64,000 nt of DNA from Acidobacteriota bacterium (GTDB lineage Bacteria; Acidobacteriota; Thermoanaerobaculia; Gp7-AA8), in NCBI GenBank assembly GCA_003223645.1, contig QHVT01000006.1, positions 340,967-404,966 of the forward strand, read 5' to 3'. This document shows, one piece after another, positions 1,172 to 24,195 of this stretch. Under the pieces are notes generated by a model. It did not search any database. It was given only the letters and a program-made list of their open reading frames with translations, and was not told where the DNA came from. Each line of letters opens with the position of its first letter. Within the stretch, counting starts at the first letter, position 1. The translations under genes and the position numbers were made by a program.

Positions 1172-1178
1172 GAATCAT

Positions 1179-1384: not shown

Positions 1385-2884
1385 CTAATCGCGCACTTTC
1401 GCGGTGCCGTCGAAATATGCCTGGTACTTCGGCCAGCTCCACACCGCGATCTCGCGTCCGACTTTCAATCCGACGTTGTTGTCGACGGGGATGTGATAGC
1501 CGCCCATCGCGCGCGAGAGGGCGGCCATGTCGGCGGTCGCGGTCCACGTCGGCAAATCGAGCGTCATCTCTTCACCCGGATTGTCCTCGGTCAGCTCACA
1601 GTGTTTGCGCTTCTCGCAGTAGCCGTACTTGTCCGTGCCGGTGAAGAGCTCGAGGGTCTTCGAGCACGCGCCGCTGACGGTCGCATGTCCGCTCGTGTAG
1701 CCGGGGAACGGCGGCGTGACGAATGACTCCGGTGAATACGGATGCCACTCCTCGGCCGGCATGTCGCGCACGCCGCCCTTCACGCCCGCCCAGCCCTTGA
1801 CCGTCTGGCCTTTGAAGAAATAGTGGACGAGCGTCCACGGCCGCGACGAGTCGTAGTAGCGCTTCGTCTCCCAGCAGGAGATGAACGCGTCGAACGCGAC
1901 GTTCGCGACGGCGAAGTACATCTTCACGTCGGTGTCGAGATCGTGATTGTCGCGGCGCGAGACGTCCTGCGAGAAGCGCAGCCAGTGCCCGCTCTGTCCC
2001 GTCGAGCGCGGGCCGTCGCGCATGAACTCGACGATTGCTTTTTGTTCATGCGTCAGCGAGTTGTTGTACGTCAGGACCTGCGCCGCTTCTTTCTTCAGCG
2101 CGTCGGCGTCGGTCGTCGTCTTCGGCGGAGGCGGCGGGCGGAACTGCGAGCTGCTCTCCATCACGAACGGCTTCACGCGATACCAAAACGGGGTGAGAAA
2201 TCCCGGCGTGATCTGGCGGCCGTCTTTCAGTTTGAACGTGATCGGCTGCCAGCGATCGGGATCGATGATCTTGTCGGGCGGATTCACCGGCACGTAGTAC
2301 GTGTAGTCCGCGTACGGCTTGCCGTTGCCGCCCGCTTCGTCGCCGAGCTGATTTGCGCCGTCGTGCCGGCGGTAGTCGATCACCGCCTGCGCCGCGAGAT
2401 TGCCGATGCCTTCCGGCGTCGCGGGATCGACCGACTCGTTCGCCGGGTCGTATCCCATCTTCTTCATCTCGCCGTCGAGATACGCCTTCGCTTCGGGATA
2501 GACGAACAGCAGCGACTTGTACGACGCGTAGCTGATCGCCTTCTTCTTGTTCTCCAGCGTCCGCTCGTTTTCGGGGCGGCGCAGTTTGCCGCCGAGCCGC
2601 GATCCCACCGCTTTCGCGTCGTATGCGGCCCACGCATCGAACATCGCCGTCGCCCAGATCGCGAGCGTGCGCGAGACGATCGTCGGCCGCGCGCCGTTCG
2701 CATCCACCTCGCGCGCCGTCGCCTCTTCGGCGATGTCGAGCCAGACGTAGGCGAGCGAGACGTGCGATTTGTCCTCGATCGGGAGGAAATGATGCAGCGG
2801 CTTCTCCTGCGCGCACAGCGGCGCGGCGAGGAGAACGACAGCTATCGCGAGAACCAGGGCCCGATGCATGACGAAGCGGATCAA
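1385..2884 (-). CDS. PAP2 superfamily / vanadium-dependent haloperoxidase-like secreted protein
   Basis: N-terminal signal peptide; PAP2/haloperoxidase motifs KRYYDSSRP, GYTSGHAT and SRAMGGYHIPVD (K..RP / PSGH / SR..H..D) in a 499 aa protein. Confidence 0.6.
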   Translation of the reverse strand: MIRFVMHRALVLAIAVVLLAAPLCAQEKPLHHFLPIEDKSHVSLAYVWLDIAEEATAREVDANGARPTIVSRTLAIWATAMFDAWAAYDAKAVGSRLGGKLRRPENERTLENKKKAISYASYKSLLFVYPEAKAYLDGEMKKMGYDPANESVDPATPEGIGNLAAQAVIDYRRHDGANQLGDEAGGNGKPYADYTYYVPVNPPDKIIDPDRWQPITFKLKDGRQITPGFLTPFWYRVKPFVMESSSQFRPPPPPKTTTDADALKKEAAQVLTYNNSLTHEQKAIVEFMRDGPRSTGQSGHWLRFSQDVSRRDNHDLDTDVKMYFAVANVAFDAFISCWETKRYYDSSRPWTLVHYFFKGQTVKGWAGVKGGVRDMPAEEWHPYSPESFVTPPFPGYTSGHATVSGACSKTLELFTGTDKYGYCEKRKHCELTEDNPGEEMTLDLPTWTATADMAALSRAMGGYHIPVDNNVGLKVGREIAVWSWPKYQAYFDGTAKVRD

Positions 2885-2898
2885 GGAAAGTTTAGCAT

Positions 2899-2988
2899 GT
2901 GGCGACCGCTGCCCTCAGCGGTCGCGCGGTGCGAAGCGCCGCCGGCCGGCAAAGCCGGCGGTGCCGCTGAGGGCAGCGGCACCCACAA
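2899..2988. repeat. REP-like double-hairpin palindromic element (GTGGCGACCGCTGCCCTCAGCGGTCGCG ... GTGCCGCTGAGGGCAGCGGCACCCACAA), copy 1
   Basis: Two mutually reverse-complementary arms, each itself a stem-loop; same arms recur at 8380, 17228 and 63342. Confidence 0.8.
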
Positions 2989-3006
2989 AGTCGACGGCGG
3001 CAAGTG

Positions 3007-3507
3007 CTACGCCTTCGGCTTCGGCAACGGGAACTCTTCGCGCGTCGGTCCGAACATGCCGGCCGGTTTTCCGCCCGACTGGCGAATCATCATCGTGAGC
3101 TGGCCGCGGTGATGCGCGCCGTGGAGCACGATGAAGTCCCACAGGTGATCGCGCATCGGCACGTCTCCGCCGAACGTTTTGATCGGGCGGTCGAGATCTT
3201 CGGCCGTGTATCCGCTCAAACGCTCGCGCGCTTCGCGATGCACGCGCTCGTACTCCGGCGCAAGCGCTTCGACAGACTTCGGACGTTGCATTCCCGGCGG
3301 GCGCTCGTCCATCGCGTACGCGCCTTTGGCAGCGAAGAACGAGCCGTACGCCTCCCCTTCCGCGAGGTGCCAGGCCATCTCTCCGATCGACCGTCCCTCG
3401 GGGTCGGGGCGATAGTCGTATTGGTCCTTCGGAATCGTCTGCAGCAGTTTCACGGTCTTCGCGGCCTCACGGTCCCACACGTCGATGAATCGTTCGAGCT
3501 CGTTCAT
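3007..3507 (-). CDS. DinB/YfiT-like (DinB_2) metal-dependent hydrolase family protein
   Basis: 166 aa from MNELERF; HxxxH-type motif HGAHHRGQ; GGAAGGAG RBS 8 nt upstream; ATGA start/stop overlap with upstream gene. Long N-terminal extension of the 480-aa ORF is Arg-rich and rejected. Confidence 0.7.
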   Translation of the reverse strand: MNELERFIDVWDREAAKTVKLLQTIPKDQYDYRPDPEGRSIGEMAWHLAEGEAYGSFFAAKGAYAMDERPPGMQRPKSVEALAPEYERVHREARERLSGYTAEDLDRPIKTFGGDVPMRDHLWDFIVLHGAHHRGQLTMMIRQSGGKPAGMFGPTREEFPLPKPKA

Positions 3508-6479
3508 TTGCCAGCAATCTCCTTCCATGCATTCAGTGCGCGCTCGACTTCCGGCTTCAGTTTCGCGAAGCCTTCGCGCGCGTCGGGGCTCGGTGCTGCA
3601 TCCGCTCCGTCGACCGCGTCGAGCACGTTCTCGATCGCGGCGAGATAGAAGCGGAGGTTTTTCGGCGGCGGTGCGTTCGGCATGCTCGTCGATCCGAACG
3701 TGGCACTGAGACCGGCGACTTCTTCGATCCGTTTCCGCATCGGCTCGCCGGTCGTCTTCTTGTACAGCGACTCGGACTCGGTGACCGCCGCGTCGAGAGC
3801 GAAGCGCAACACGTCGATCTGCTTCGCGAGCGCGAACTGTTCGGCATACGCGGACATCGGCACTTTCACGCGCGGATCGGGATCGATGCGCAGCGGCTGT
3901 TCGAGCTTGCGATCGCCGACCGTGAGGACGACGCGATAGTCGCCCGGCGGCGCCCAGATGCCGGGGCTCCACACGCCGCGGGTTCCGGCGAGACGGATCG
4001 GCCAGACGAAGCGATGCATCCCCGGCGTCGCCGGCAGCATTACCGGCATCGGAAACCACTCCGGCGCGGTGCGCAGCTTCGCGGGATCGATCTCCGGCGG
4101 CGCGTCGGCGCTGCTGTAACGGCGCACGAGCGCGTTCTGCGCGTCGAAGATTTCGAGCGTGACCGGCGTCGCCGCGTCGAGCACATAGTCGATGTACGCG
4201 CCGGCCGGCGGATTCGACGCGAGAGGCTCGTCCTTCGGCATCGGCGTGCCGGTGAATCCCGCGAAACGGAGTCTCACTACGGCCGCCGGCGTGAAAAGGT
4301 ACGGACGTTGACCAACGCGCTGCCGCAGCGGCGTGACGTCGTCCATGATCCAGAAGCCGCGCCCATGCGTCGCGATCACGAGATCGTTGCCGTGCACGTC
4401 GATGTCGCGCACCGACGTCACCGGCAGATTCATCTGCAGCGGCTGCCACGCTTCGCCGTCATCGAACGAGACGAAAATCCCGCGCTCCGTTCCGGCGTAC
4501 AGCAAGCCTTTCACCGCGCTGTCCTCGCGGACGACATTCACCGCGTGATTCGCAGGAATGCCGTTCACGATCAGCTTCCACGACTTGCCGCCGTCGTGCG
4601 TGCGGTAGATGTACGGGTGAAAATCGTCGAGGCGATGGCGGTCGACCGCGGCGTACGCGGTCTCCGCGTCGAAGTGCGACGCGTCGATGATGCCGATCTT
4701 CGACCACGGCGTCAGCGCCGCCGGCGTGACGTTCTGCCAGTGCGCGCCTTCGTCGTGCGTGCGCCAGATCAAACCGTCATCCGTGCCGGCCCAGAGGTCG
4801 TGATCGGCGACGCGCGACGGCGCGATCGCGTAGATCACGCCGCGTCGCGGACCGGTCTGCTGATGCAGCGCCGCCGTCGCCGCGTCGAGATTCGGCGGAA
4901 CGCCGGGATCCTCGCGCGTGAGATCGGGACTGATGATCGTCCACCGATTCCCGCCATCCTCGGTGCGATACAAACGCTGGTTCGCGAAATAGAGCACGCG
5001 CGGATCGCGCACGGAAAAGACGAGAGGCAGCGTCCACGTGCGGCGCTCGTTGCCTTCGAAATGCGCGAGTGTCGGATCGACCGAGCGCGTCTGCTGCGTG
5101 CGCAGGTCGAGACGATCGACGCGGCCGCCGTAGATGATGTGATCGTCTTTCGGATCGGGCGCGATGTTGTCGCTCTCCCCTCCCGCGGTCGTCTCGCGGA
5201 AGTTCATCATCGTGATGCCGTCGATCGTGTTCGTGCGGCTCGGCAGACTCACCGCGCCGGAGTCCTGCTGCGCGCCGTAGACCTTGTACGGGAAGCTCGT
5301 GTCGGTGCTGACGTGATAGAGCTGCGCGGTCGGCTGGTTGTACCAGCTGGTCCACGTTAGGCCGCCGTTGACGGACACGACCGCGCCCTGGTCTACGCCG
5401 AGGATGCGGCGCGCGGGAAACTGCGGATCGATCCAGAGCGTGTGATAGTCGTCGCCTCCCGGCGCGCCTTTCACCGGCACGAACACTTTGCCGCCGTCGT
5501 CCGAGCGAAAGAGATTCACGTTGCACGAGTAGACGACGTCGGCGTTCTCCGGCTCGACGGTGATCTCGCCGAAATACCAGCCGCGGCTCCAAACGCGCGT
5601 GTCGCTCGACGTGCGCGTCCAATGCGCGCCCGCGTCGTCGGAGCGATACATCCCGCCTTCTTTCGCATCGACGATCGCGTACACGCGTTGCGGATTCGAC
5701 TGCGCGACGGCGAGGCCGATGCGGCCTGTATTCTCCGGAAACCCGTTGCCGCGAATCTCCGTCCAGTGGTCGCCGCCGTCCGTCGACTTGAACAAGCCGC
5801 CGTCCGGTCCGTTCGATGGCGGATAGACACTCCACGGCGGGCGGCGCGTTTCCCACAGCGCGGCGTACACCACGTTCGGATTGCCCGGCTCGAACGCGAG
5901 ATCGATCGCGCCGGCGTCGAAGCGGCTGAGGATGCGCGTCCACGTCGCGCCGCCATCGCGCGAGCGAAACACGCCGCGCTCGGTGTTCGAACCGTAGGGG
6001 TGTCCGAGGGCGCAGACGTAGACGAGATTCGGATCGGAGGGATGCACGCGGATGCGCGCGATCTGCTGCGAGTCGGCGAGGCCGATGTGCGACCACGTTT
6101 TGCCGCCGTCGGTCGAGCGATACATCCCGTTGCCCTGCGCGATGTCCGAGCGCATGTCCGATTCGCCGCTGCCGACGTAGATCACTTTCGGATTCGAAGG
6201 CGCCACCGCGATCGCGCCGATGGAACCGATCGGCTGACTGTCGAAGATCGGCTGCCACGTTCGTCCGGCGTCGCGCGTCTCCCACACGCCGCCGTTCACA
6301 CTGCCGAAGTAGAAATGCTCCGGCTCGTTCGGAACGCCGGTGACCGCGAGCACGCGTCCGCCGCGAAACGGACCGATCAAACGCCAGCGCAGATCCTGGA
6401 ACAGCGACGGATCGACGGTCGCCGCGTGGGCGAAGGCGGTGACGATGAGAAGAAGGGAGAGAAGGACTCGCTTCGACAT
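3504..6479 (-). CDS. BNR/Asp-box repeat glycosyl hydrolase-like protein (sortilin/Vps10- or GH74-like), secreted
   Basis: Signal peptide MSKRVLLSLLLIVTAFAHA; many S-x-D-x-G-x-T-W Asp-box repeats (RSTDGGKTW, RSRDGGATW, KSTDGGDHW, RSDDAGAHW, RTEDGGNRW, RTHDGGKSW). Confidence 0.65.
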   Translation of the reverse strand: MSKRVLLSLLLIVTAFAHAATVDPSLFQDLRWRLIGPFRGGRVLAVTGVPNEPEHFYFGSVNGGVWETRDAGRTWQPIFDSQPIGSIGAIAVAPSNPKVIYVGSGESDMRSDIAQGNGMYRSTDGGKTWSHIGLADSQQIARIRVHPSDPNLVYVCALGHPYGSNTERGVFRSRDGGATWTRILSRFDAGAIDLAFEPGNPNVVYAALWETRRPPWSVYPPSNGPDGGLFKSTDGGDHWTEIRGNGFPENTGRIGLAVAQSNPQRVYAIVDAKEGGMYRSDDAGAHWTRTSSDTRVWSRGWYFGEITVEPENADVVYSCNVNLFRSDDGGKVFVPVKGAPGGDDYHTLWIDPQFPARRILGVDQGAVVSVNGGLTWTSWYNQPTAQLYHVSTDTSFPYKVYGAQQDSGAVSLPSRTNTIDGITMMNFRETTAGGESDNIAPDPKDDHIIYGGRVDRLDLRTQQTRSVDPTLAHFEGNERRTWTLPLVFSVRDPRVLYFANQRLYRTEDGGNRWTIISPDLTREDPGVPPNLDAATAALHQQTGPRRGVIYAIAPSRVADHDLWAGTDDGLIWRTHDEGAHWQNVTPAALTPWSKIGIIDASHFDAETAYAAVDRHRLDDFHPYIYRTHDGGKSWKLIVNGIPANHAVNVVREDSAVKGLLYAGTERGIFVSFDDGEAWQPLQMNLPVTSVRDIDVHGNDLVIATHGRGFWIMDDVTPLRQRVGQRPYLFTPAAVVRLRFAGFTGTPMPKDEPLASNPPAGAYIDYVLDAATPVTLEIFDAQNALVRRYSSADAPPEIDPAKLRTAPEWFPMPVMLPATPGMHRFVWPIRLAGTRGVWSPGIWAPPGDYRVVLTVGDRKLEQPLRIDPDPRVKVPMSAYAEQFALAKQIDVLRFALDAAVTESESLYKKTTGEPMRKRIEEVAGLSATFGSTSMPNAPPPKNLRFYLAAIENVLDAVDGADAAPSPDAREGFAKLKPEVERALNAWKEIAGK

Positions 6480-6526
6480 CGCGCGACATCATAGTCGCGC
6501 GATGTCTTCTTCCCGTTACGAATCGG

Positions 6527-7021
6527 TTATGCGGTGACGGGCTCGTGCCGGCGCAGCGCGAGGTTCGCGAAGCCGCCGAGAGCGGCTGCGGTGAGGATCG
6601 CGGCGTTCAACGCAAGCGAAGTGTCGATGCGCAGCAGCGCGTCGAGCGAAAGCGCGCCGGGGCCGGTGAGGCCGATCGCGATCGCCGCGGCGGCGTAGAG
6701 CAGCGGCAGCTCGATGCCGTTGGAGTTCGCGAAGAGGCCGCCTTTCCAATGGACGGTGATCGCGGCGACGATCATCGTCGCGAGGACGAGCGCCGGACCG
6801 ATCGGGCCGAAGAGGCCGATCGCAACGAGCAGGCCGCCCGCGAATTCGCTCGCGCCGGCGGCGAAGGCGAAGAAGCGGCCGGGGCGGAAGCCGAGGGACT
6901 CGAAGTAGCCGCCGGTGCCGTTGAGACCGTATCCGCCGAACCAGCCGAAGAGCTTCTGCGCGCCGTGCGCGGCCATGACGATGCCGAAGATGAGCCGCAG
7001 AACCAGTAATCCTTGTGCCAT
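6527..7021 (-). CDS. DoxX family membrane protein
   Basis: Four hydrophobic segments; MAQGLLVLRLIFGIVMAAHGAQKLFG N-terminus typical of DoxX. Confidence 0.7.
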   Translation of the reverse strand: MAQGLLVLRLIFGIVMAAHGAQKLFGWFGGYGLNGTGGYFESLGFRPGRFFAFAAGASEFAGGLLVAIGLFGPIGPALVLATMIVAAITVHWKGGLFANSNGIELPLLYAAAAIAIGLTGPGALSLDALLRIDTSLALNAAILTAAALGGFANLALRRHEPVTA

Positions 7022-7135
7022 GTGACCTCCTATTTCGTAGTGACTATACTTTAGTTAGCGACTATAAGCCAGTCAGCCGCATTGGAATTCCCAGCGCCTT
7101 ACGGCTATTCTGGAAAGCGCTACGTTGGAAAAACT

Positions 7136-7492
7136 ATGGAAGCGAAAGCCCCCGAGCTCTGCGCGCAGTTCCACCAGGCGATCGAGCTGATCGGCAAGCG
7201 CTGGACCGGCGCGATCGTCTACCTCCTCCTCCGCTCCTCCTGCCGCTTCGCCACGCTCCGGGACGCGATCCCCGACATCACCGACCGCATGCTCAGCGAG
7301 CGGCTGCAGGAGCTCGAGCAGAACGGCATCGTCAGCCGCACGGTCGTGCCGGAGACGCCGGTGCGGGTCGAATACGCGCTCACGAAAAAAGGACGCGCGC
7401 TCGCCGCCGCGCTCGACGCGATCGGCGAATGGGCGCACGCGTGGGGCGCGAAGGGCGCGCGATCGAAGTCACGAAAACGGGCGCGCGCCTGA
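7136..7492 (+). CDS. HxlR-family winged-helix transcriptional regulator
   Basis: CAQFHQAIELIGKRWTGAIVYLL matches HxlR/DUF24 signature (C...IG.KW...I...L); ATG at 7136 preferred over upstream alternative start; divergent from DoxX gene. Confidence 0.75.
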   Translation: MEAKAPELCAQFHQAIELIGKRWTGAIVYLLLRSSCRFATLRDAIPDITDRMLSERLQELEQNGIVSRTVVPETPVRVEYALTKKGRALAAALDAIGEWAHAWGAKGARSKSRKRARA

Positions 7493-8566: not shown

Positions 8567-11500
8567 TCAATGCCGCGCGGAGCGGCGCTTCCCCGTGGGC
8601 GGCGGCGGCTGCCCCGCGTCGCCGGAGAGGATGATCGCCGGCGACTGCGTCCACGTCGTCCGATTGCCGGCGATGTCTTCGATCTCGATCCGCAAGTCGA
8701 CGGAATCCGCGCCCGCGCGGGTGACCGCTGCGAGATCGGTGCGATACATCTCGCCCGCGGGGAAGCGGCGTAACTGCGCGACGTCGCCGAGGTCGGAGCC
8801 TTGATGGACGGCGGTCAGCGGGGTCCAAGTGGCGGATCCGTGTGCGCGATAGAACACCTTGGTCGCCTCGCGTTTCAACTCGCGCGTCGAGCCGAGCTTG
8901 CTGCGCTGGTCGGCGGGCGGATAGAAGTAGTCGCCCGCGGCGAAGAAGAGTGACGCGTTGCTGTTCTTCTCCAGCTTCTCGGCGAGTCGCCCCTGCGCGT
9001 TCAACACGCGCAGCGCGGTGAGCGTGGGCGCGTCGAGGTCGTTCGGATCGCTGCCGAAGCGCACCTCCACCTCGCCGCGCGACGGCTGTCCGGCGATGTT
9101 CATGTCGTCGCGCGCGGCCACGTAGCGGCCGCCCGTCTGCGGCGCGGGACCGGGATCGCATGGACCTTCATCGCAGGTCGTGAGATTCGTGTATGTGCCG
9201 GCGGCGACTTGCGCGTTCGCGGCGTTGTAGCTGACCCACGGCGTGTCCTGCGTGACGTAGCGATACCACTCGCCGAGCGGCCCGACGAACCCCGGGACCA
9301 GTCCGATGTAGCGATTCGGCGCGGTGCCGAAGAACGAGAATGCGTAGAGCGGTGAGGTACCGAGCGTGAGCTCTTCGCCGTCCGAGATGCGATAGGCGGC
9401 GGGCGACGCATACACCCACGGCACGGAAACGATCGCGCCGTCGATGCCGCGCAGCTTTCCGATCGCCGTACTTCCCATGTCGAAGTCGATGCCCGACGTT
9501 CCGACGCCCGACTCCATCGTCGTGAAGTAATCGAGGATCATCTGCGGCCCGAGCTCGACCGGCGAACAATCGCTCAGGCTCTCCGTGACGATGGACGGCG
9601 TTCGCACCCCGGTCGTGAGGCATGCGAACACGGCGTTCGGTCCCTGCTTCGGTTGCGGGAAGCGAACGCGCACATGTTTGTACGTCGCCGGTCCCGCGCT
9701 CATCGTCGCCGACTGCGCGACGCCGGCGAGCGGCGGATACTGCACGTTGTACGCGCGGCCGTGCGTCACATCGAAGTACGCGTCGAACAAATGGAACGTA
9801 AACGTCGGCGAGACCGGAGAGAAAAACAGCTTCGGAACGGTGGCAGGAATTTGAAGCGTGACGGCGACCGCCGGCAGCTTCGCGTAGACGAAGCGAAGCG
9901 TGCGGATGTGATTGATCTGCGCCGGCAATTGATCGAATGCGGTGCCGAATTGGTCGCGCGCGTCGAGGACGACTTCCGCCGATGTGTCGGCGCGATGCAG
10001 CGCCACTTCGCTGTCGCCGGATGCGGTGCGATTTTCCGCGAATGCAATGCGCGCCGCGTACGGCACCGCGCTCGTGTCATACGCCAGCATCAGAAAATCC
10101 CACCGCGTGTCCGGCTGCGTGAAGAGCTCGGCCTTCCCCTCGTCGTAGAGGAACACGACCTTCGCCGTGCTCTCCGAAAGCGCGAGCGCGCTCACCGCGG
10201 GCTGATCGTAGGAGATCGTCACGCGCGCGGCGCGCGCGACGAACCACGGCAGCGCGAACGGCGCGGCGCCGCGAAACTCAATGTTTCCGTCGATGAAGGA
10301 CGCCGCCGGAAACGCAACGGTGCTGTTGTTGATGACGAGCCGCAAATCGACCGACTTCGACTCACCCGCCGCGAGCTGCAGCGTTGCCGGCGTGGCGGTG
10401 AACGTTGCTCCCGCCGGAACATTCGTCGCGACGACGTCGAACGTGCGCGCGTCCGCCGCGCGATTCGTGAGCGTGACGCTGCGCGTCGCCTCGAACGTGC
10501 CGCCCTTCCCGCTGGCGAGTCCGAAGCTGATGCCGGCGCCGTCGACGAACGTCGTCGCCGTGTCCGCGCGTGCGACATCGATGCGTCCCGCTGCGCGCGC
10601 AAGCGCCGCGTCGTCGACAGCCATCGCCGTCGTCACGAGCGCGCTCTTGATCTCCGCCGGCGTCCATGCCGGATGCAGTTTGCGCAGCAGCGCCGCCGCT
10701 CCGGTGACGTGCGGAGCTGCCATCGATGTTCCGTCCATCGCGACAATGAGACCGCTGAGGTAGGTCGATTGAATCGCGACGCCGGGCGCCATCACGTCCG
10801 GCTTGAATCCGAGGAGCGCGGGCGACGGACCGCGCGAGCTGAACGTCGCGACCGTTCCGAACGACGTCACCGCGCCGACGGTGATCGCGGTGCGCGCCGT
10901 GCCCGGGCTGCCGATCGAGTCCGGCCGGCCCGCGTTGCCCGCCGCCACCACGACGATCACGCCCGCGGCCGTTGCGTTGTCGACGGCATGCGACACGAGA
11001 TCGTCGGCGGTGCCGGGACCGCCGAGGCTGAGATTGATCACGTCGAGGTGATCGGAAGGATTGCCGTCCTGATTCGGATCGATGCTGCGCTCGATCGCCG
11101 CGATGACGTTCGACTGCAATCCGCTTCCCTGCGCGCTCAAGACTTTGTACGCGTACAGCGTTGCTCCCGGCGCGACGCCGGCGATCTCGGGCGAGTCGGC
11201 CGCGATGATGCCGGCGACGTGCGTGCCGTGACCGGCGTCGTCTTTCGGATCGCCGTCGTTATTCGCGAAGTCCCATCCGCCCGCGACCTTGTGTCCCGGG
11301 CCGAATGCGCCGCCGAGGGCGGGATGCGTGTAGTCGATGCCGGTGTCGATCACGCCGATGCGGATTCCGTCGCCGCGCGTCGCGAGCGAGCTCGCATTCA
11401 CGCGAGCGGCGGCGTCGATCGCCGCGGCCGTGGGTTTCGCATCGCCGGCCGCATACGCGGTGACCACGCGATCGGGAACCACCGCTTTCACGTACGGAAG

Positions 11501-11800
11501 GCGGCGAATCGCATCGAGCGACTCGCGCGGCACATCGATCGCCGCGCCGAAGATCGCCTGCACGTATTCGTAGCGGATCACCGGCGTCGCCGTTTGTTCG
11601 TGCGGATGCCGCTCGACCGTGCTCATCACGTCGCCGCGAAATCGCGCGAACGTCGCCGCGGCCGTCGTCCCGGGAATCCGCTGAAACTCCACGATGGCCG
11701 CGCCGCTCGGCAGCGGCTGCGCACGCAGCTCGATGTCATTCGATTGGGCGTGGAGTGTGGTCGCGGCAAGCAGAAGGGAGAGGACAAGGATCCGAGGCAT
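8567..11800 (-). CDS. S8 family serine peptidase (subtilisin-like) with long C-terminal extension, secreted
   Basis: Start at [18 protein letters not shown] signal peptide (ATG 11800); catalytic motifs [24 protein letters not shown]. Confidence 0.85.
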
Positions 11801-11996
11801 GCACCGTAGGGTACAGGGCAAATCGAAAGTGGAAGTGACGGAACGGTGGAGGCTTCCGCTCGCACTGTCATGTTCTTGCGTGAAAGCGGCGCGTGCACTC
11901 GATGAATAGGAATTCGCGCAAAAGTGGCCTGGCAGAAAGGTGGTACGACAAGAAGGGACCACGTCAGATCTGCCTCATGAGCCATAAAATAACGGC

Positions 11997-12677
11997 ATGT
12001 CAACGAACGATGCGGCAGATCACGAGACCGCGCAAAAGTGGCTGAAGACACTATCCGGGCAAGTGCTGCGACTGAGAATGGATTACCGCATCTGGGACGA
12101 GACCCAGGCGATCATTCGGGCTAATCCAAAATTACATCGCTCCAGTGAATTCTATCGCTGGATGAGAGAAATGTTTGTGTCCGGCGTCGCAATGTCGGTA
12201 CGCCGCTTAACCGACAGCGACACCCGCGCTATTTCGTTCTTCCGTTTCCTGAAGCTCGTGAAGGGCAATGCATCTCTCGTGTCGCGTCAGCGATACCGTA
12301 AGTTGTATAGAGACGACGACGTCTTTTCGCAGCAGCTTCGGGAATTGGGAATCATGACGGATCACGTGAAGGCGGAATACGAGATGCTGGTTGGACCCGG
12401 GAAGGAGCAGCCGAGTCCTGACGATATTCAGCGCGAACTTGACGCGATGCAGCAGTTAACTTCGAAGATCGTTGCGCTGGCAGACTCCTCGATCGCTCAT
12501 CACGAAGAAAAGAAGCCGGAGGATCTCCCAACCTTTGCCGACGTTGACAAGGCGATCAGCTTTTTCGAAGAGCTTCTAAAACGATATCGGTTGCTGTTCG
12601 ATGCCACGAGCATGTCTACGGATATTACGTTCCAGTACGATTGGAAAGCGATCTTCCGCGTGCCTTGGATTCCTTAG
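11997..12677 (+). CDS. Hypothetical alpha-helical protein (accessory, lower GC)
   Basis: 226 aa ORF with protein-like composition in a lower-GC patch; no family recognised by eye. Confidence 0.45.
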   Translation: MSTNDAADHETAQKWLKTLSGQVLRLRMDYRIWDETQAIIRANPKLHRSSEFYRWMREMFVSGVAMSVRRLTDSDTRAISFFRFLKLVKGNASLVSRQRYRKLYRDDDVFSQQLRELGIMTDHVKAEYEMLVGPGKEQPSPDDIQRELDAMQQLTSKIVALADSSIAHHEEKKPEDLPTFADVDKAISFFEELLKRYRLLFDATSMSTDITFQYDWKAIFRVPWIP

Positions 12678-12847
12678 AGGTCGCCCAACGGCTTGAGCCT
12701 AAGCTGCACGGCCAGGGCCTACGTGCCGAAGCCGACGCGGCACGGCGGCCGCAGCGAATGAGTCGAATCCGACGAGTCGCAAACTGCGGCCGGCGTGCCG
12801 CCGCTCATTCTTGTATGTTGACGAGCAGGCTCGGCCGCACGCAGGAG

Positions 12848-13465
12848 TTAGCCGGCCGATCGTAAGACGCTTTCAATGTAACCTACCGCATCCTCAAAAT
12901 TGACAAGGACCTTGCACTGATAGTGAGCGAGTTCATCGTAGATTGCGGGATTGGCGAAACCCTTTCGATCTTGGCTTACAAAGCATTTCGGCCCGACTGG
13001 TGTTGACTTCGCGTGCGCTATCACACTTGCCAGCACAATGGAATCAGGCGGCGAAAGGGAACATCGACGCTCGAGTTCTACGGCAGCTATGAGAACTTCG
13101 GTAGATAGTGGCTCAATTGTGCCATGTTCTTCGATAACAGCAATTGCCTGCTCAAGGCGGCCGCGCGCTTCTTCGCCGCTTGCGACTATTGCGGCGAGGA
13201 GATCTTTCGACGTCTCAGGGAGTGCTTCGAACTGTTGTGAACGAGAGAGCTGCCGTATGAGCGGCTGAAGCTGATCTCGCAACAGAATATTTCTTTCCGA
13301 AAGGCGGATGTCCCAAGTGCTACGTGCTTCTGCGACGGAAAATGCCGGAATCACGAGAGCCACTGAACGGCGTCTTGCCAGCGCGAGGATCGTTTCACAA
13401 CTCTGGCGGCGCTCCTGAAGGTATGCCACCTCAAGGAGGAAGTTAGTTTCCGCGTAGACAATCAC
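12848..13465 (-). CDS. PIN-like domain protein (tentative)
   Basis: N-terminus MIVYAETNFLLE resembles PIN first strand (x-V-x-D/E-T-N-x-L); acidic residues downstream; 4-nt overlap with upstream ORF. Confidence 0.35.
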   Translation of the reverse strand: MIVYAETNFLLEVAYLQERRQSCETILALARRRSVALVIPAFSVAEARSTWDIRLSERNILLRDQLQPLIRQLSRSQQFEALPETSKDLLAAIVASGEEARGRLEQAIAVIEEHGTIEPLSTEVLIAAVELERRCSLSPPDSIVLASVIAHAKSTPVGPKCFVSQDRKGFANPAIYDELAHYQCKVLVNFEDAVGYIESVLRSAG

Positions 13466-13908
13466 GCAGCTTGGGACCTGATGACACCATCACGAATTGA
13501 TTCAATAAGCCCCGAGTCCCGAAGCCATGCAGGTTGTTCGGCTTCCGGCATTCCTGCAACGACGTCACTCAGCCAAGCGTAGATCAGCGCTTCGAAACTG
13601 CGCTCGCTGAGAGTGTCAAGAGAACCATGGAGACGGAGAAGATATGGCCGAAGAGCAACCGCAGTGTCTCCTTCAAACTCGGGCGGCCCAGCCTCACCGC
13701 TTGGATGACGCCACAGATATAGGTGATCCCGAAGGGCTAGCAGGAAGAATGGAGCAGGCGGTATCTGCGCATGCACGAGCAAGTTGCGCAAGAATCTTCC
13801 TGCCCATTCCGGCGATGGAGCAATGGTGTTGTTCGCCTCGACGACGAGCTGTATGGCTCCACCTGGTTTTTCAACCACGAAGTCGGCGGTCGGTCGTCTC
13901 TCTTCCAT
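13462..13908 (-). CDS. Hypothetical protein co-transcribed with PIN-like gene
   Basis: 148 aa ORF, stop overlaps start of 12848-13465 gene. Confidence 0.4.
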   Translation of the reverse strand: MEERRPTADFVVEKPGGAIQLVVEANNTIAPSPEWAGRFLRNLLVHAQIPPAPFFLLALRDHLYLWRHPSGEAGPPEFEGDTAVALRPYLLRLHGSLDTLSERSFEALIYAWLSDVVAGMPEAEQPAWLRDSGLIESIRDGVIRSQAA

Positions 13909-13957
13909 CGCTCGGGTGATTCTATCCGAAACTTCACCCGGTCAGCCCAACTCCGAC

Positions 13958-14482
13958 TTACCGTGTTGCAACCGCGCGCTCGAGTACTGCAAGACGCACA
14001 TCCCTCGGTCCCGCGATCTCGATGATCGCGCAACCGAGCTCGTACCCGCCGATGATCTCGAGCAGCTGGTCATTCATCGCTTCGCGCAGTGCCGGATCCT
14101 CGGACTCCGGTACATCGATGCGATCGGTGTCATTGAGAGGAAGGACGACGAGCAGGTCGACGTGGCGCATGCCGGTGGCGACGAGCTCCAACGCGGGCTC
14201 GATCAGGTCTCGAGCGTCGAGTGCGCGGAGGTACGCGAGAAAATCGACGGGACTGCGCTCCGCGATCACGCGCGCTCCGCGCTCGTGTGTACTGAGCCGC
14301 TCCACGCAAATCTCGAGTTGGCGATAGAAGTCGTCCGCTGCCGGCGGGTCGCTCATTTGATCGAGCCATTCGTACGGCTCGGGCTCGAACGCATAGTCCG
14401 CGTGAGCGGCGAGGAAGTCTTCGATCAGCGTGGTCTTCCCCGAGGCGTGCGTGCCGGAAACGGCGATTCTCACGCGGATCAC
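13958..14482 (-). CDS. Small P-loop NTPase (AAA_28-like ATPase/kinase fold)
   Basis: Walker A GTHASGKTT at residues 9-17; Walker B-like DLLVVLP; 174 aa. Confidence 0.6.
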   Translation of the reverse strand: MIRVRIAVSGTHASGKTTLIEDFLAAHADYAFEPEPYEWLDQMSDPPAADDFYRQLEICVERLSTHERGARVIAERSPVDFLAYLRALDARDLIEPALELVATGMRHVDLLVVLPLNDTDRIDVPESEDPALREAMNDQLLEIIGGYELGCAIIEIAGPRDVRLAVLERAVATR

Positions 14483-14502
14483 GGTATAACAGCGCGAAAT
14501 CG

Positions 14503-15333
14503 ATGAGCGGGCATGCGCGATTTCCGATTCGCGAGTGGCGCCGGGCGGTTGCCGCCGCGGCGCAACGCGTCGGCAGCGAGGCGATTGCGCCGTTCGGGTT
14601 CGAGCTGACCGGATCGGCGAAGTATCTCTCCTCCCACCTCCGATATCTTTTCATCTATCTCCTGCGCACGCCGTCGCCGTTGGGGAACGAGCCGCTGGTG
14701 CGCGAGATCTGTGATGCGCTCGATGGCGCGCTCGCCGACGTCGCGCGCACGATCGAGATCGTCGACTACGACCGCTTCACCGTGCCGACCGGTTTCGACG
14801 CATCGCGAACGCTGATCATTCGCTCGGTCGACGCGGAGCTGCCGCTGCTGCGGACGTGGGCGCGCTACATCGTCGCCGCGGCGCTCGCCGTCAACCGGCC
14901 GCGCATCACCGCCGTCACCGATTTCCATTCCGATCTGATGGCGCAGCGCTACTGCTGTCAGCTGGCGATCATGCACGACGCGCTGTTCGCTGCGCTGCCG
15001 AACATGCCCGCGCTTTCGCTGCGCGACGCGATCGGACGCCATCTCGGCGGGCTGCAGCGCGTCAGTCTCGCCGACCGCTTTCGCTTCGAGCTCGTGGATG
15101 CCGAAGTCGTGCGCGCGATCGGCATCGCCATCGATCGCTTTTACGCGGACGTGAACGTGAAGTGGAGCGACTCCGCGGCGAACATTCGCGTGCCCGACTT
15201 TCACGGCAAGGCGCTGCTCGATTATCCGCGGAGCGACGAGCTCGACCTGCTCGTGGCGATCGCCATCCAGCGATATGAGGAGTACGCGGACGACGCTACG
15301 CCGCGTGCAGCCAGCGCGCAAATGCTGCAATGA
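14503..15333 (+). CDS. Hypothetical protein
   Basis: 276 aa, strong GC3 bias; preferred over the Arg-rich antisense ORF 14479-15360. Confidence 0.45.
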   Translation: MSGHARFPIREWRRAVAAAAQRVGSEAIAPFGFELTGSAKYLSSHLRYLFIYLLRTPSPLGNEPLVREICDALDGALADVARTIEIVDYDRFTVPTGFDASRTLIIRSVDAELPLLRTWARYIVAAALAVNRPRITAVTDFHSDLMAQRYCCQLAIMHDALFAALPNMPALSLRDAIGRHLGGLQRVSLADRFRFELVDAEVVRAIGIAIDRFYADVNVKWSDSAANIRVPDFHGKALLDYPRSDELDLLVAIAIQRYEEYADDATPRAASAQMLQ

Positions 15334-17521
15334 GCGGGTGGACCGGCGCGGACGCGGCACGGCGATGCATCCACGCGTGCACCGTCTTCAGTTGCCGCGC
15401 GACGCGCAGACCGTTCTCTTCGACGGCGCGGCCGGTCTGATACGTGTCGATCGCGCAGTCGATCGCGCCGGTGCGCAGCCACGCTTCGACGCAGCCGGTG
15501 ACCGGCACCACATCGATTGCCGGATCCATCACGTCTCGCGCGACACTCGGCCACGCGGACGCACACGTGCTGCGTGATTCACCATCGCCGATTTCGACGA
15601 GGCGACAGGGATCGACGCCCAGCGGAAAGAGTGCTTCGATCTGGTCGCCGTCCTCGAGTCGCACGTCCTCGCCGAAGATCGCGTAGCCGGCCCATCCGCG
15701 CCGCAACATCGCCGGCAGATCGCGCGATCGCGCGAAGACGACTTGCAGCGCATGCGACGTGATGTTCCACGTCAGCTCGCCGGACTTGAACGGACCGGCG
15801 GCAATGCCGCCGTCATCGAAGAACGCGCGCAACAGCGAGCGCATCACCGCGCTGTTCGGCGCGGCGACGATCACCGGCGTTCGTTCCGCGGACGCAGCGA
15901 GATCCACAGCGTGCATCGCGCAATCGCGACGCGCGATCGCCGCGGCAGCCGCGAGCAACGCGCGCTGCAACATGACGCGCGCTTCGGCGAGCGCGGTGTC
16001 GCCAAGACGGGTCATGCGCGTGCCGGCGCAATTGAGAACGCGCACCGCGTGACGGTCGAGCCATTCGACGACGCGCGCGGCAACGTCGTCGGCAGGAACG
16101 CCGCGCAACTCGAGTACCGGCCGCCCCAGCCACCTCGCCGCTTTCCTCGTCTCCTCCGACCCCTCGGATTGCGCGTAGTCGAGCAGCAGCGTTCCGTCGC
16201 TCGCGAACACGTTCGCCCATGTGCAGAACCGGTAGCTCGGCGTCGCCAGCTCGAGAATCGTTGCGCCGTCGAGACGATCGGGTCCGCCTTCTCCGAGCTC
16301 GCTGCACTCGGTGCGCTTTCCCTCCGGCATGATTGCGAACGCCGTCACACCGAACGTGCGCGCGGTCTGCAGCGCGAGTTGATCGATTCCCGTTTGTCCG
16401 CAGCTCGTGATCACGAGCCCCGGACTGAGGTGCAATCGCGTCGCGAACGACGCCTCGGTCGTGCTGGAACTGCGCCGCTCGATGTGCGCGGGAAAAATCT
16501 CATTCAGGTCGTCGCTGCGCGGGACGTGCGACGACGGCGACTGCATCGCCGCGCGCGCCTGCGCCTGCGCCATGGCATGCGCATCGTCGACGCTCGCACC
16601 GTCGATGCGGCAGGCGAGAAACGCGCCGGCGTACGCGTCGCCGGCGCCGAGGACGTGCACTGCCGATGGAGCACTCTCGAGCGGCAAATGAATCGCGTCG
16701 CGTGCCCCGCGCTCTTTCCAGACCACGGGGCGCGAGCCGTCGGTGCCGATGCATTCGACGTTCGCGACGACGGATGCGAAGCGCAGCGAGCTCTCGTCCT
16801 GCAATGCCAGCTCCACGAAGTCACGCCGCTGACCGATCAGGAATCGCAGATTTGCAAACTGCTCGAGACGCGCGGGCGATCGCCAATCTGCAATCAACAG
16901 TGCCAGCTGATCGCAGCGATGAATGAAATCGAGCAGCGCATCGTCCGCGGCCAAGGCATCGCACAGCGTCATGACCAACAGATCGCACGGCTGCAAATCG
17001 CGATCGCCCTGCAGTTGCGCATTGTGTTCGTAGATCGCGATCTGCCGCACGTCGCCGGTCGTCTCTTCGATCAGGCAGTAGGCCTCGCGCGTGAATCCCT
17101 TTCGCCACACCGGCTCGAGGGCGACTCCCCACGCGCGCAGATGCGCGAGTCCGGCGTCGCTGAGAATCGCGTCGTCGAATTCGGCGTGGCCGTGCCAGCG
17201 GATCGGACCGGGACGCAGTGCGGCATTGTGGCGACCGCTGCCCTCGGCGGTCGCGGTGCCGCTGCGGGCAGCGGCACCCACAACGCGCGCCGATGCTGCC
17301 GCGCAGAGCGTGTTCGAAACCGTTCCTCCCGGCGTCCATCGCTGCTGCCCTCGCTCCGCCGCGAATCGCCGGTACGCCTCGCGTTCCTCGGAAGAGATCG
17401 CGAGCCGCACGTGGACGTCCGGCGCATGCGTTCGCAGAAACGCGTCGATCTCTCCGGAGGGAGCGATGATGATGTCATCGCGCGTGGCATGCCCGATCCC
17501 CAGTACAACGGCATCAGGCAT
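15296..17521 (-). CDS. Tri-domain fusion: PfkB-family sugar/nucleoside kinase + SLOG (putative molybdenum-carrier-like) domain + HisG-type ATP phosphoribosyltransferase
   Basis: PfkB motifs TPGGTVSNTLCAAASARV and GAGDAYAGAF; SLOG/MoCo-carrier motif ITSCGQTGIDQLALQTA ... SYRFCTWANVFASDGTLLL; HisG motifs DLPAMLRRGWAGYAIFGEDVRLE, LGVDPCRLVE, TGCVEAWLRTGAIDCAIDTYQTGRAVEENGL; ATG overlaps upstream gene stop by 8 nt (ATGCCTGA). Confidence 0.7.
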   Translation of the reverse strand: MPDAVVLGIGHATRDDIIIAPSGEIDAFLRTHAPDVHVRLAISSEEREAYRRFAAERGQQRWTPGGTVSNTLCAAASARVVGAAARSGTATAEGSGRHNAALRPGPIRWHGHAEFDDAILSDAGLAHLRAWGVALEPVWRKGFTREAYCLIEETTGDVRQIAIYEHNAQLQGDRDLQPCDLLVMTLCDALAADDALLDFIHRCDQLALLIADWRSPARLEQFANLRFLIGQRRDFVELALQDESSLRFASVVANVECIGTDGSRPVVWKERGARDAIHLPLESAPSAVHVLGAGDAYAGAFLACRIDGASVDDAHAMAQAQARAAMQSPSSHVPRSDDLNEIFPAHIERRSSSTTEASFATRLHLSPGLVITSCGQTGIDQLALQTARTFGVTAFAIMPEGKRTECSELGEGGPDRLDGATILELATPSYRFCTWANVFASDGTLLLDYAQSEGSEETRKAARWLGRPVLELRGVPADDVAARVVEWLDRHAVRVLNCAGTRMTRLGDTALAEARVMLQRALLAAAAAIARRDCAMHAVDLAASAERTPVIVAAPNSAVMRSLLRAFFDDGGIAAGPFKSGELTWNITSHALQVVFARSRDLPAMLRRGWAGYAIFGEDVRLEDGDQIEALFPLGVDPCRLVEIGDGESRSTCASAWPSVARDVMDPAIDVVPVTGCVEAWLRTGAIDCAIDTYQTGRAVEENGLRVARQLKTVHAWMHRRAASAPVHPLIAAFARWLHAA
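17228..17284. repeat. REP-like double-hairpin element, compact copy 3, inserted in-frame inside the PfkB domain coding region
   Basis: GTGGCGACCGCTGCCCTCGGCGGTCGCGGTGCCGCTGCGGGCAGCGGCACCCACAA; translated on minus strand as VVGAAARSGTATAEGSGRH directly after the PfkB GG..N..A...R motif. Confidence 0.75.
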
Positions 17522-18881
17522 ATTTCGTCACGGCGCCGCCGCAGTCGGTGATCATCTGACTCTCCAACTCTGCGATCTGCGGCGACCTGCGCGACGTCGA
17601 GAATTCGTCGCGCACCCAGGCCTCGAAGTCGGGATCCTGACGCGGCACCATGATGCCGTTCTTGAACTTCAATACGCTCTCTTTGAGCAGACGGATCTTC
17701 GCCTGCGGATGCATCCGGATGTAGCGGTAGGCAGTCACTCGATCGACGACCGCGACATCGCCGGCCGCCGCACTCACGATGCTGAGCGCAGTTCCGATGT
17801 CCGGATTCTGCACCACGATCGTATTGAACGACTCGATGCGGAGCTCGCGCACGGCGTACTCCCAACCGGCCTCCCCTTCCGCGACCGCCCAACGCAGTTG
17901 CATGCCGCGCAGATCGTCGAGCGTCTGGATCTTGCTGTCGTCCGCCACGACGGCGCAGAGGTCGATGCTGTGGAAGTTGCACGTGAAGTCCGCGTAGTCG
18001 CGGCGCTCGGAAGTCTCGAACACCGACAGCACGAGATCGATCGCGCGCGGATCCGCGACCGGCTTCGCGAAGATGTCGCTGGTGAACTCCTGCCATTGAA
18101 TCGGAACGAAGTCCACTTGCAGTCCGGTGCGCGCGGCGACGTCGCGCGCGAGATCGACGTAGTAGCCGCTGAACGTGACTTGCCGGTCATTCGTGAATTG
18201 GTAATCGGCGAGCGGCGGATGTTTCGTGACGCCGCAGCGCAGATGCCGTTTCGACATCACCAGCTCGCGGCGGCTCGGACGAAGGGACGTTGGTGAGAGT
18301 CTCGCGGTCGAGAGCTCCGGCCGCTGGAGCAATTGTCGTAAATGCTGCTCCACCCGTTCAAAGAATCCCTTCTCGCTGCCGCGGACTCCCGAATACGTTC
18401 CGATGATGCCGAGCTTCTCGACTTCCTCGCGAAACTTGAACACGCGCGTCAGCTCTTTCGAGGCCGCGACGGACTTCGGCTGCGGAGGATCATCGTTGAA
18501 ATAGAACAGCATCCACGCCTGCGTCTTCGCGTTCACGTTCTCGAGCGCGTTGCGGAACTCCTTCTCCGTACCCGACGCGCGCTTGCCGCCGCCGCCGAAG
18601 CGGGACGACATGATGCCGAGGTAGATGTCGCAGAGAGGCGTCTGGTCGTCGACGACGTCCTGCGGCGCGAGCCCGAGGCGCGGGATGACGTTGTCCTCCC
18701 ACTTGAACAGCTTGAGCTGACGCCCGGTCAGATTCCCCTCGGTTTCGTTGATGCGCGCGATCACTTCATCGAGGACGTTGCGCTCCGGCTCGCAGTCGCC
18801 GGGCGAAGAGACGAAGATTCGGATGAATGACAATGGAGGCTCCGGCTTTTTGGGATGTCGATGCTTCCCAAAATGATACAC
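17514..18881 (-). CDS. DUF4062-like N-terminal domain fused to cytoplasmic family-3 solute-binding (PBP type II) domain
   Basis: GTG start with GAGG 5 nt upstream; N-terminus FIRIFVSSPGDCEPERNVL matches DUF4062 signature; C-terminal 250 aa match SBP_bac_3 (GYYVDLARDVAARTGLQVDFVPIQWQEF ... LDDLRGMQL ... VDRVTAYRYI); no signal peptide. Confidence 0.65.
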   Translation of the reverse strand: MYHFGKHRHPKKPEPPLSFIRIFVSSPGDCEPERNVLDEVIARINETEGNLTGRQLKLFKWEDNVIPRLGLAPQDVVDDQTPLCDIYLGIMSSRFGGGGKRASGTEKEFRNALENVNAKTQAWMLFYFNDDPPQPKSVAASKELTRVFKFREEVEKLGIIGTYSGVRGSEKGFFERVEQHLRQLLQRPELSTARLSPTSLRPSRRELVMSKRHLRCGVTKHPPLADYQFTNDRQVTFSGYYVDLARDVAARTGLQVDFVPIQWQEFTSDIFAKPVADPRAIDLVLSVFETSERRDYADFTCNFHSIDLCAVVADDSKIQTLDDLRGMQLRWAVAEGEAGWEYAVRELRIESFNTIVVQNPDIGTALSIVSAAAGDVAVVDRVTAYRYIRMHPQAKIRLLKESVLKFKNGIMVPRQDPDFEAWVRDEFSTSRRSPQIAELESQMITDCGGAVTKYA

Positions 18882-24133: not shown

Positions 24134-24195
24134 CGAAGCCTCCCACCTAACTATAGTGGGATGGAGGTTACACCGATCTATGGTTAGGGTAAAGG

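Follow-up and report, generated by a model that had tools for sequence, protein, structure and literature searches.

Locus organization and base composition

Our study describes a small two-gene cassette on the minus strand of a 64,000-nucleotide (nt) stretch of an Acidobacteriota genome (contig QHVT01000006.1). This stretch, analysed at its full length, is referred to here as the window, and coordinates are window positions except where they are given for another locus. The upstream gene of the cassette (13462-13908) encodes a protein of 148 amino acids (aa), proposed as antitoxin or neutraliser and called here the partner; the downstream gene (12848-13465) encodes a PIN-domain protein of 205 aa with the N-terminus MIVYAETNFLLE, proposed as the toxin. 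The two coding regions overlap by 4 nt (13462-13465, minus strand) in the sequence GTGA, which holds the GTG start codon of the PIN gene and the TGA stop codon of the partner gene. Two neighbours that lie outside the cassette adjoin it: a plus-strand gene of the HEPN_AbiU2 family (11997-12677, 226 aa) and a minus-strand gene for an AAA_28 or nucleotide-kinase-like P-loop protein (13958-14482, 174 aa) with the Walker A motif GTHASGKTT. An earlier sequence-only reading of this DNA had listed these four open reading frames (ORFs), the Walker A motif, the PIN-like N-terminus and the 4-nt overlap, and all of them are present at these positions. It had also regarded the region as an accessory patch of lower guanine-plus-cytosine (GC) content and as a candidate toxin-antitoxin or abortive-infection cassette of four genes.

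The drop in GC content is real (0.53-0.58 against approximately 0.65-0.69 in the flanks), but it is shorter than had been proposed, extending over approximately 11.8-13.9 kb and comprising only the 226-aa gene, the PIN gene and the partner gene. The P-loop gene, with a host-like GC content of 0.61-0.65, lies outside the patch. No tRNA gene, Rfam RNA, att-like direct repeat or integrase gene was found bounding the low-GC patch or around it.

The partner and PIN genes form a conserved two-gene unit

We compared the locus with 21 closely related loci (L001-L021), 80 more distant loci and 8 plasmid records. The distant members are metagenome loci, most of them at 32-55% identity, and the alignment used to scan for them was a 5-sequence subset. 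In all 21 closely related loci the partner gene comes first and the PIN gene second on the same strand, and these loci have no other neighbour in common. The contexts retrieved with the PIN protein present the same arrangement, with a gene of 145-150 aa and no Pfam match always located 5' of the PIN gene and overlapping it by 4 nt. Among the 57 distant-member loci with enough downstream sequence, an intact PIN gene lies directly downstream of the partner in 41, a recognisable but disrupted one in 9, and none in 7. A GTGA or ATGA junction is present in almost all related loci; judged from its sequence, this overlap implies that the two genes are translationally coupled.

The borders of the unit are visible in the DNA itself. 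Similarity across loci starts at a TAGAAT box located 10-13 nt 5' of the partner ATG and stops at the PIN stop codon. In the window this -10-like box occupies 13919-13924 on the minus strand, 10 nt 5' of the partner ATG, and nearly every locus of the window's clade keeps it; of 70 distinct upstream regions, 27 have a TAGAAT-like box at a distance of 6-11 nt from the ATG, compared with 2.4% at random positions. The box came only from the cross-locus alignment, and a generic sigma-70 scan detected no full -35/-10 promoter. From its position, mRNAs of the window's clade would be predicted to have a very short 5' leader or none. The conserved unit is a self-contained two-gene cassette that comprises 13462-13924 and 12848-13465 on the minus strand: two adjacent, co-oriented small genes with a coupling overlap, inherited as a unit.

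A perfect 7-bp inverted repeat, CGGGTGA/TCACCCG (13913-13919 and 13934-13940, minus strand), straddles the -10 box and is a candidate operator that might serve autoregulation. Short inverted repeats across the box are also visible by eye in L108 and L109, an observation without statistics. We considered whether the repeat is a conserved operator and did not retain that idea, as it is clear only in the window and a few relatives; it is kept as a suggestion only.

The two proteins also diverge together. Over the 1,081 locus pairs formed by 47 distinct intact cassettes, the pairwise identities of the partner and of the PIN protein correlate with r = 0.83, and their means are 39.4% and 41.1%, respectively. 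The partner and PIN genes are co-inherited and evolve at similar rates. The impression that the partner is more conserved than the toxin, apparent in close relatives, was not upheld over these pairs. As a separate observation, three loci of one lineage (L006-L008) carry a divergent gene for a 76-aa HTH_3 (Xre-like) protein only 3 nt 5' of the partner start (L006 coordinates 9321-9551), which could be a lineage-specific regulator that makes a three-component variant of the cassette.

The PIN protein

That the 205-aa protein is a PIN nuclease, as the sequence-only reading had supposed from its N-terminus and acidic residues, is borne out by both profile and structure comparisons. It matches Pfam PIN_12 with E 8.7e-7 and 29.9 bits over profile positions 2-172 of 172, and the PIN profile with E 3.6e-4. 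Its close homologues form 58 clusters, all of approximately 205 aa, and most PIN homologues carry a precomputed PF16289 (PIN_12) match; with a score just under the curated threshold, the window protein is a peripheral member of PIN_12 or of a sister clade. The AlphaFold2 (AF2) model has a predicted local distance difference test score (pLDDT) of 92.1. When the model was compared with the PDB by Foldseek, the top 30 matches were all VapC-type toxins or archaeal PIN proteins, the best with E 3.7e-4 and probability 1.00, with template-modelling (TM) scores normalised to the target of 0.55-0.68. The model has a three-layer alpha/beta/alpha PIN fold, into which a hairpin of approximately 70 residues is predicted to be inserted after strand 2, made of helices 41-73 and 82-114 (approximately 33 residues each). 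Profile searches of the PIN family against the PDB gave nothing significant.

All 47 cassettes have E6, N8, E12, E46, R75 and D141 in the PIN protein, and D166 (17 of 47, in QDxKGF) and/or D169 (34 of 47, in NSKDF) supplies the fourth acidic residue. The PIN active site is therefore under selection. Characteristic of this PIN family is the invariant Glu at its first active-site position, in place of the Asp of VapC. Two cysteines are also nearly invariant, C23 in 44 of 47 and C184 in at least 93% of the proteins, and they could serve in a disulfide, in metal binding or in redox sensing.

The partner protein and its family

The partner matches no Pfam, NCBIfam, PADLOC or PHROG entry, and a scan of 96 family members at E<=10 gave no antitoxin-type domain; in particular, no ribbon-helix-helix (RHH), AbrB, Phd/YefM or helix-turn-helix (HTH) domain was found with Pfam and NCBIfam in the window protein or in those members at that cut-off. 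Close homologues form 101 clusters of approximately 150 aa. An exhaustive profile search extends the family to 1,044 cluster representatives at E<=1e-3 (560 at E<=1e-10), and the best 150 of these representatives are nearly all stand-alone proteins of approximately 150 aa. The AF2 model (pLDDT 87.6, predicted TM score 0.85) presents a beta-hairpin (residues 10-13 and 19-26), a helix at 33-46, more strands and a helical C-terminal half.

D9 and E24 of the partner do not vary among the 47 distinct cassettes. Position 26 is occupied by K in 39 of them, by R in 4, by T in 2 and by E and N in 1 each. At the level of the family, D9...E24-x-K26 reads as the D...ExK signature of PD-(D/E)XK nucleases. 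The window copy is the only one of the 47 with N26 (codon 26 at 13831-13833), and the signature is incomplete there; if the motif is catalytic, the window partner is probably inactive although it is paired with an intact PIN gene. Weak matches to HSDR_N_2 (PF13588) occur in 12 of 60 distant members (best E 0.0013, 19.3 bits against a cut-off of 25), and one distant member weakly matches a TnsA-like endonuclease. All of these matches fall on residues 3-40 approximately and on the same central profile segment, with about 30 residues aligned. Foldseek found no significant neighbour of the partner model, the best E being 0.08 in the PDB and 0.023 in a viral library; the weak top PDB matches lean to PD-(D/E)XK nucleases, namely Hjc, BpuSI, DrdV and Cas4. 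Profile searches of the partner family against the PDB also gave nothing significant. We consider the description of the partner as restriction-endonuclease-like a lead that these sequence matches support, and not a family assignment.

Distribution and mobility of the cassette

We found the pair in over 100 loci whose flanks are unrelated; they lie in Acidobacteriota and Nitrospirota and on cyanobacterial and Hymenobacter plasmids. A scan of species representatives with one peptide pattern, which detects close relatives only, matched 13 of 185,579 genomes. These 13 loci belong mostly to Thermoanaerobaculia, with one in Holophagales, one in Nitrospiraceae and one weak match in a Planctomycete. 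The flanks are unrelated housekeeping genes that differ by lineage. Plasmid copies occur in Nostoc, Tolypothrix/Microchaete, Chroococcidiopsis, Gloeothece and Hymenobacter; in a mobilizable plasmid of 29.6 kb from Tolypothrix the cassette lies just after ParA-like/CopG partition genes. No copies of the cassette were found in viral contigs, phage genomes or PHROGs.

The GC content of the cassette is below that of both flanks in nearly every host (0.54-0.63 against 0.63-0.71); therefore, the dip belongs to the cassette wherever it is found and is not peculiar to the window genome. With its variable flanks, its occurrence on plasmids and its lower GC content, the cassette has an accessory, horizontally mobile distribution, in agreement with the accessory character that had been ascribed to the patch.

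Asymmetric decay of the PIN gene

Across the loci it is the PIN gene that is damaged or lost, often in close relatives of genomes that retain it. In L028 it has been cut to a 45-codon stub and in L030 it has been lost entirely, and it is whole in the close relative L029; only 5-13 PIN codons are left in L042 and L072, the relatives of which (L040/L043 and L069/L070, respectively) are intact. Mobile elements account for other cases. An IS630-type transposase follows the first PIN codons in L056. In the Chroococcidiopsis plasmid pCHRO.01 (L112), an IS200/IS605 tnpA-tnpB element splits the PIN gene (locus coordinates 5586-7222), and in the Nostoc plasmid CP151101 (L113) an ISH3 transposase occupies the PIN position (coordinates 2036-3211), while the pair in the sister plasmid CP151100 is intact. 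Frameshifted or half-replaced PIN genes were identified in L010, L036, L051, L057/L067, L071, L077/L080 and L102. In all of these loci the partner ORF is intact. In the approximately 10 independent contexts selected through the PIN gene, the partner is always present and intact, and no intact PIN gene was seen without it.

This pattern, in which the PIN gene has repeatedly been deleted, broken or split by insertion sequences (IS), is as would be expected if the PIN protein were harmful without the partner and the partner harmless alone, and it also argues against the partner as the toxin. Insertions such as those in L112 and L113 may mean that elements repeatedly target the 5' end of the PIN gene, or they may simply be selected knock-outs. 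L109 and L110 had been considered as truncated PIN genes without a partner and were discarded: both genes are intact in them, and the gene caller had overlooked a GTG start and the partner gene.

Neighbouring genes

The sequence-only reading had described the 226-aa product as a helical hypothetical protein. The gene stands, but not its hypothetical status: it matches Pfam HEPN_AbiU2 (PF18734) with 33.9 bits against a cut-off of 26.8, over profile positions 4-180 of 193. About 20 homologue clusters make up this AbiU2-like family. H168 is invariant in it, with K/S, D and A at positions -4 to -6, and no conserved Arg was found at the spacing of the canonical HEPN Rx4-6H motif; elsewhere in the sequence, R69 is invariant and R70 nearly so. 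The relatives are solitary, located by CAP12/PCTIR TIR and restriction-modification genes in L024 and among HicAB, ParE and integrase genes in L026, and they never adjoin the PIN pair. The AbiU2-like gene is an accessory gene in its own right, located in the same low-GC patch as the cassette, and because of this the patch is a small toxin-antitoxin/defence islet made of the cassette and an independent HEPN/AbiU2 gene. The two are separated by a GC-rich hairpin between the convergent PIN and HEPN genes (12737-12801), with 18-bp arms that are 94% complementary, a 29-nt loop and an RNA folding energy of -46.8 kcal/mol (z = -2.56). This hairpin probably terminates transcription in both directions; it is particular to the window locus, there being no cross-locus conservation 3' of the PIN stop codon, and lies outside the conserved cassette.

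The P-loop protein matches AAA_28 (33.6 bits against a cut-off of 27), dNK (E 1.3e-3) and a thymidylate kinase PHROG (E 1.5e-8). Its gene is co-oriented with the pair, with its stop codon 49 nt 5' of the partner ATG. The protein looks like one of nucleotide-kinase type, and its gene belongs to the neighbouring locus of host GC content. No homologues of the window's AbiU2-like, AAA_28, ORF276, SLOG-fusion or DUF4062 genes were found in L001-L021, and neither an AAA_28 gene nor an AbiU2-like gene lies beside the pair in any of the 21 close loci, the 80 distant loci or the 8 plasmid records. The proposed combination of an ATPase and a nuclease in one cassette is not sustained by these comparisons. 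What remains of the toxin-antitoxin or abortive-infection proposal is the tight, overlapping pair of the PIN and 148-aa genes, and not its four-gene extent. Among the checks that the sequence-only reading had recommended, profile searches gave PIN_12, HEPN_AbiU2 and AAA_28 matches but nothing for the partner, and the neighbourhoods revealed a pair that is mobile and present on plasmids but not linked to the ATPase and HEPN genes.

The same gene order occurs in L023, an 11.5-kb contig with 99-100% identity that comes from the same population as the window. We considered L023 as an empty-site or natural-knockout comparison and rejected it as uninformative, since it represents the same population and has a 10-N scaffold gap inside the partner gene. 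A perfect 14-nt direct repeat, CGCGCAAAAGTGGC, lies at 11915-11928 and 12029-12042 and flanks the start of the HEPN gene; its second copy falls within a 21-nt indel (12025-12045) that separates the window from L023. A 15-nt indel at 10445 likewise separates the S8 peptidase genes of the two sequences. Both indels are within-population microheterogeneity.

Some features of the wider surroundings are also recorded here. A large secreted S8 peptidase gene (8567-11962) adjoins the patch, and in the unrelated genome of L015 two S8 peptidase genes adjoin the cassette (coordinates 354-5868) in the other orientation; because the orientation differs, this adjacency is probably a coincidence. On the other side, the minus-strand region 15296-18881 encodes a 741-aa fusion of PfkB kinase, circularly permuted YpsA SLOG and HisG (ATP phosphoribosyltransferase), which overlaps by 8 nt a 455-aa DUF4062 and SBP_bac_3 protein; the latter matches the PADLOC candidate PDC-S60 with E 2.6e-28. 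Together with the AAA_28 gene and ORF276 (13958-15333), these two genes look like a nucleotide-centred conflict or signalling locus, which may be more unusual than the PIN cassette. A second low-GC patch lies at approximately 24000-26000 (0.54-0.57 against approximately 0.64) and is possibly another accessory insertion.

Proposed function and alternative explanations

We think it probable that the cassette is a type II-like toxin-antitoxin module, acting in addiction or abortive infection, with a new class of antitoxin. This interpretation is built on the gene anatomy, the strict pairing, the co-evolution of the two proteins, their mobility, the fold and active-site conservation of the PIN protein and the asymmetric decay of its gene. 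In the proposed mechanism, the -10 box located 10 nt from the first ATG would drive a bicistronic mRNA with little or no leader, from which the 148-aa partner would be translated first. The 205-aa PIN protein would be made by termination-reinitiation at the GTGA overlap, so that it would never be produced without its partner. It would act as a VapC-type, Mg2+-dependent endoribonuclease with E6, E46, D141 and D166 as putative catalytic residues; its long helical hairpin would likely shape the choice of substrate, and it would be the harmful component of the module. The partner, predicted to be compact and globular, with a D...ExK hairpin like that of restriction endonucleases and without a DNA-binding domain of the classical antitoxin type, would neutralise it by direct binding.

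Several points weigh against this interpretation. We infer toxicity, neutralisation by binding, the RNA substrate, the leaderless transcript and autoregulation, and neither the PIN protein nor the partner matches a model of PADLOC-DB v2, where only chance-level hits (E ~0.05) were obtained. The PIN protein of the window is just below the gathering threshold of PIN_12 (29.9 against 32 bits). The asymmetry of decay is biased, given that most loci were selected through the partner and that the PIN-selected sample is small (approximately 10). Some of the frameshifts may be assembly errors; the contigs of L013 and L021, to judge by their names, may be long-read assemblies of metagenome-assembled genomes. 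The partner itself is unlike known antitoxins: it has no DNA-binding domain, it is globular and confidently folded throughout in the model, it evolves as slowly as the toxin, and 43 of 47 copies retain a D...ExK motif that looks catalytic (K or R at position 26). Because of this fold, slow evolution, lack of an antitoxin domain and retained motif, a function beyond simple sequestration is suggested.

A rival explanation is a two-nuclease defence system, in which the partner would be an active PD-(D/E)XK-type nuclease, or a sensor of invading DNA or of modified or damaged nucleic acid, that releases or activates the PIN RNase and leads to abortive infection; both proteins would then be catalytic or sensory. 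The invariant D9 and E24 and the K or R at position 26 agree with this explanation, as do the recurrent weak HSDR_N_2 (12 of 60) and TnsA-like matches that always fall on the motif hairpin, the enrichment of Hjc, BpuSI, DrdV and Cas4 among the weak top Foldseek matches, and a degree of conservation equal to that of the PIN protein. Moreover, the cassette adjoins an AbiU2-family gene in the window, and Cosus/Brc24, a single-gene PIN_12 protein, has been found by experiment to defend against phage (bioRxiv 10.1101/2024.07.02.601719). However, no structural match is significant (best E 0.08 in the PDB and 0.023 in the viral library), the best Pfam score is 19.3 bits where 25 are needed, and no PADLOC or PHROG model is matched. 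Catalysis is evidently not needed universally, since the window copy has Asn in place of the lysine and others have T or E. Most contexts are housekeeping genes and not defence islands, and partners that persist as orphans without a PIN gene are hard to square with an obligate two-part effector. On balance, we regard the two-nuclease system as rather unlikely. A more specific proposal, which we put forward tentatively and with considerable doubt, is that the partner family is a minimal restriction-endonuclease-fold sensor or nuclease gating a VapC-like RNase; the cassette would then be a hitherto unrecognised two-nuclease immune or addiction system in which an enzyme serves as the antitoxin, and a prokaryotic equivalent, split into two genes, of the PD-(D/E)XK-PIN architecture of eukaryotic DUF1308/C7orf25.

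Two other explanations are less likely still. The pair could form a non-toxic, lineage-specific complex for RNA processing or repair, a housekeeping role in which the gene coupling would secure stoichiometric assembly only. Among the weaker structural matches of the PIN model (ranks 31-34) are HARPs, minimal protein-only RNase P enzymes that are themselves PIN proteins and have helical inserts; both proteins of the cassette are well conserved and co-evolve, and many flanks are housekeeping genes. This role is nevertheless improbable in view of the patchy presence across phyla with different flanks in every lineage, the carriage on plasmids, the consistently atypical GC content, the frequent loss of the PIN gene beside relatives that retain it (L028/L030 against L029, L042 against L040/L043, L072 against L069/L070) and the match of only 13 of 185,579 species genomes to the peptide pattern for close relatives. 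As for the four genes being one abortive-infection system of an ATPase with nucleases, comprising the HEPN-like, PIN, partner and P-loop ATPase genes, it would account for their physical adjacency, for the co-oriented ATPase gene that ends 49 nt from the partner ATG and for the same arrangement in L023, although that contig is of the same population (99-100% identity). Nonetheless, the AAA_28 and AbiU2-like genes accompany the pair in no other locus, the cassette has its own promoter box, and similarity ends just 5' of this box, within the 49-nt spacer; the ATPase gene has host GC content and a kinase-like product, and AbiU2-like relatives occur alone in other islands. We have ruled out the four-gene system on these comparative data and give it scarcely any credence.

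The type II-like toxin-antitoxin interpretation, which we prefer, would have consequences for annotation and for mechanism. Should the partner be confirmed as the neutraliser, it would constitute a new class of antitoxin and give a name to more than 1,000 clusters of hypothetical proteins; should it also be enzymatically active, the cassette would be a toxin-antitoxin or defence module gated by a sensor of nuclease fold.

Comparison with known systems

The AbiU2-like neighbour has a known counterpart of its own: it is above threshold for HEPN_AbiU2 (PF18734), a family that takes its name from the lactococcal abortive-infection system AbiU, and its relatives are located in defence and toxin-antitoxin islands, but its subfamily conserves only the His and not the Arg of Rx4-6H, and it is unlinked to the PIN pair. 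For the cassette itself, the best Pfam match of the PIN protein is PIN_12/DUF4935 (PF16289), with which it shares a long helical insert after strand 2. Matelska et al. (2017, PMC5499597) describe DUF4935, in the VapC group, as proteins of approximately 350 aa with such an insert, usually monocistronic and of unknown function. To PIN_12 also belongs Cosus/Brc24, a single-gene anti-phage system with T12, D14 and D96 as catalytic residues (bioRxiv 10.1101/2024.07.02.601719). In contrast, the PIN protein of the cassette has 205 aa, always occurs with a specific upstream partner and scores below the family threshold (29.9 against 32 bits).

On the side of the partner, the likeness to HSDR_N_2 (PF13588) and other PD-(D/E)XK proteins consists of the D...E-x-K on a beta-hairpin, after which come a helix and a strand, whereas the partner has neither the helix nor the strand that are canonical at the N-terminus, the lysine is absent from the window copy and the scores are below cut-off. 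A full-text literature search gave no paper tying HSDR_N_2/PF13588 or PD-(D/E)XK proteins to PIN antitoxins. The order of the modules, with a nuclease-fold-like one followed by PIN, is reminiscent of DUF1308 (PF07000; human C7orf25), a fusion of an N-terminal PD-(D/E)XK-like and a C-terminal PIN-like domain that is mostly eukaryotic, often has a PIN domain without acidic residues and is of unknown function (Matelska et al. 2017, PMC5499597). The likeness is only architectural, the cassette being two coupled genes, and no PF07000 match was found for the partner or the PIN protein among Pfam matches at E<=1.

The closest functional analogy is with VapBC. Both systems consist of two small co-oriented genes, with a 4-nt overlap between the upstream protector and the downstream PIN gene. 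The cassette also shares with VapBC the PIN fold, which matches VapC structures (Foldseek probability 1.0) and has four conserved acidic residues, and a patchy, plasmid-borne distribution, with decay of the toxin gene and retention of the upstream gene. They differ in that the partner is not VapB-like, having no RHH, AbrB, Phd or HTH domain and being a fully globular protein of 148 aa with a D...ExK motif; in that the PIN protein of 205 aa has a helical hairpin of approximately 70 residues and Glu as first catalytic residue, where VapC has Asp; and in that the promoter of the cassette lies almost directly on the start codon. By this analogy, the cassette would work like VapBC, but it lacks one of its defining features, the VapB-type DNA-binding antitoxin. 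PIN/VapC proteins are the largest class of prokaryotic toxins, and the antitoxins known for them are small proteins that combine a DNA-binding domain with a partly disordered tail. In our cassette, a PIN toxin would be obligately coupled to a different kind of partner, which is globular, has a nuclease-like signature and belongs to a large unannotated family present in several phyla and on plasmids. The system is best filed as a PIN toxin-antitoxin-type cassette, which is a known kind; what is new in it is an undescribed, widespread family of nuclease-fold-like partners.

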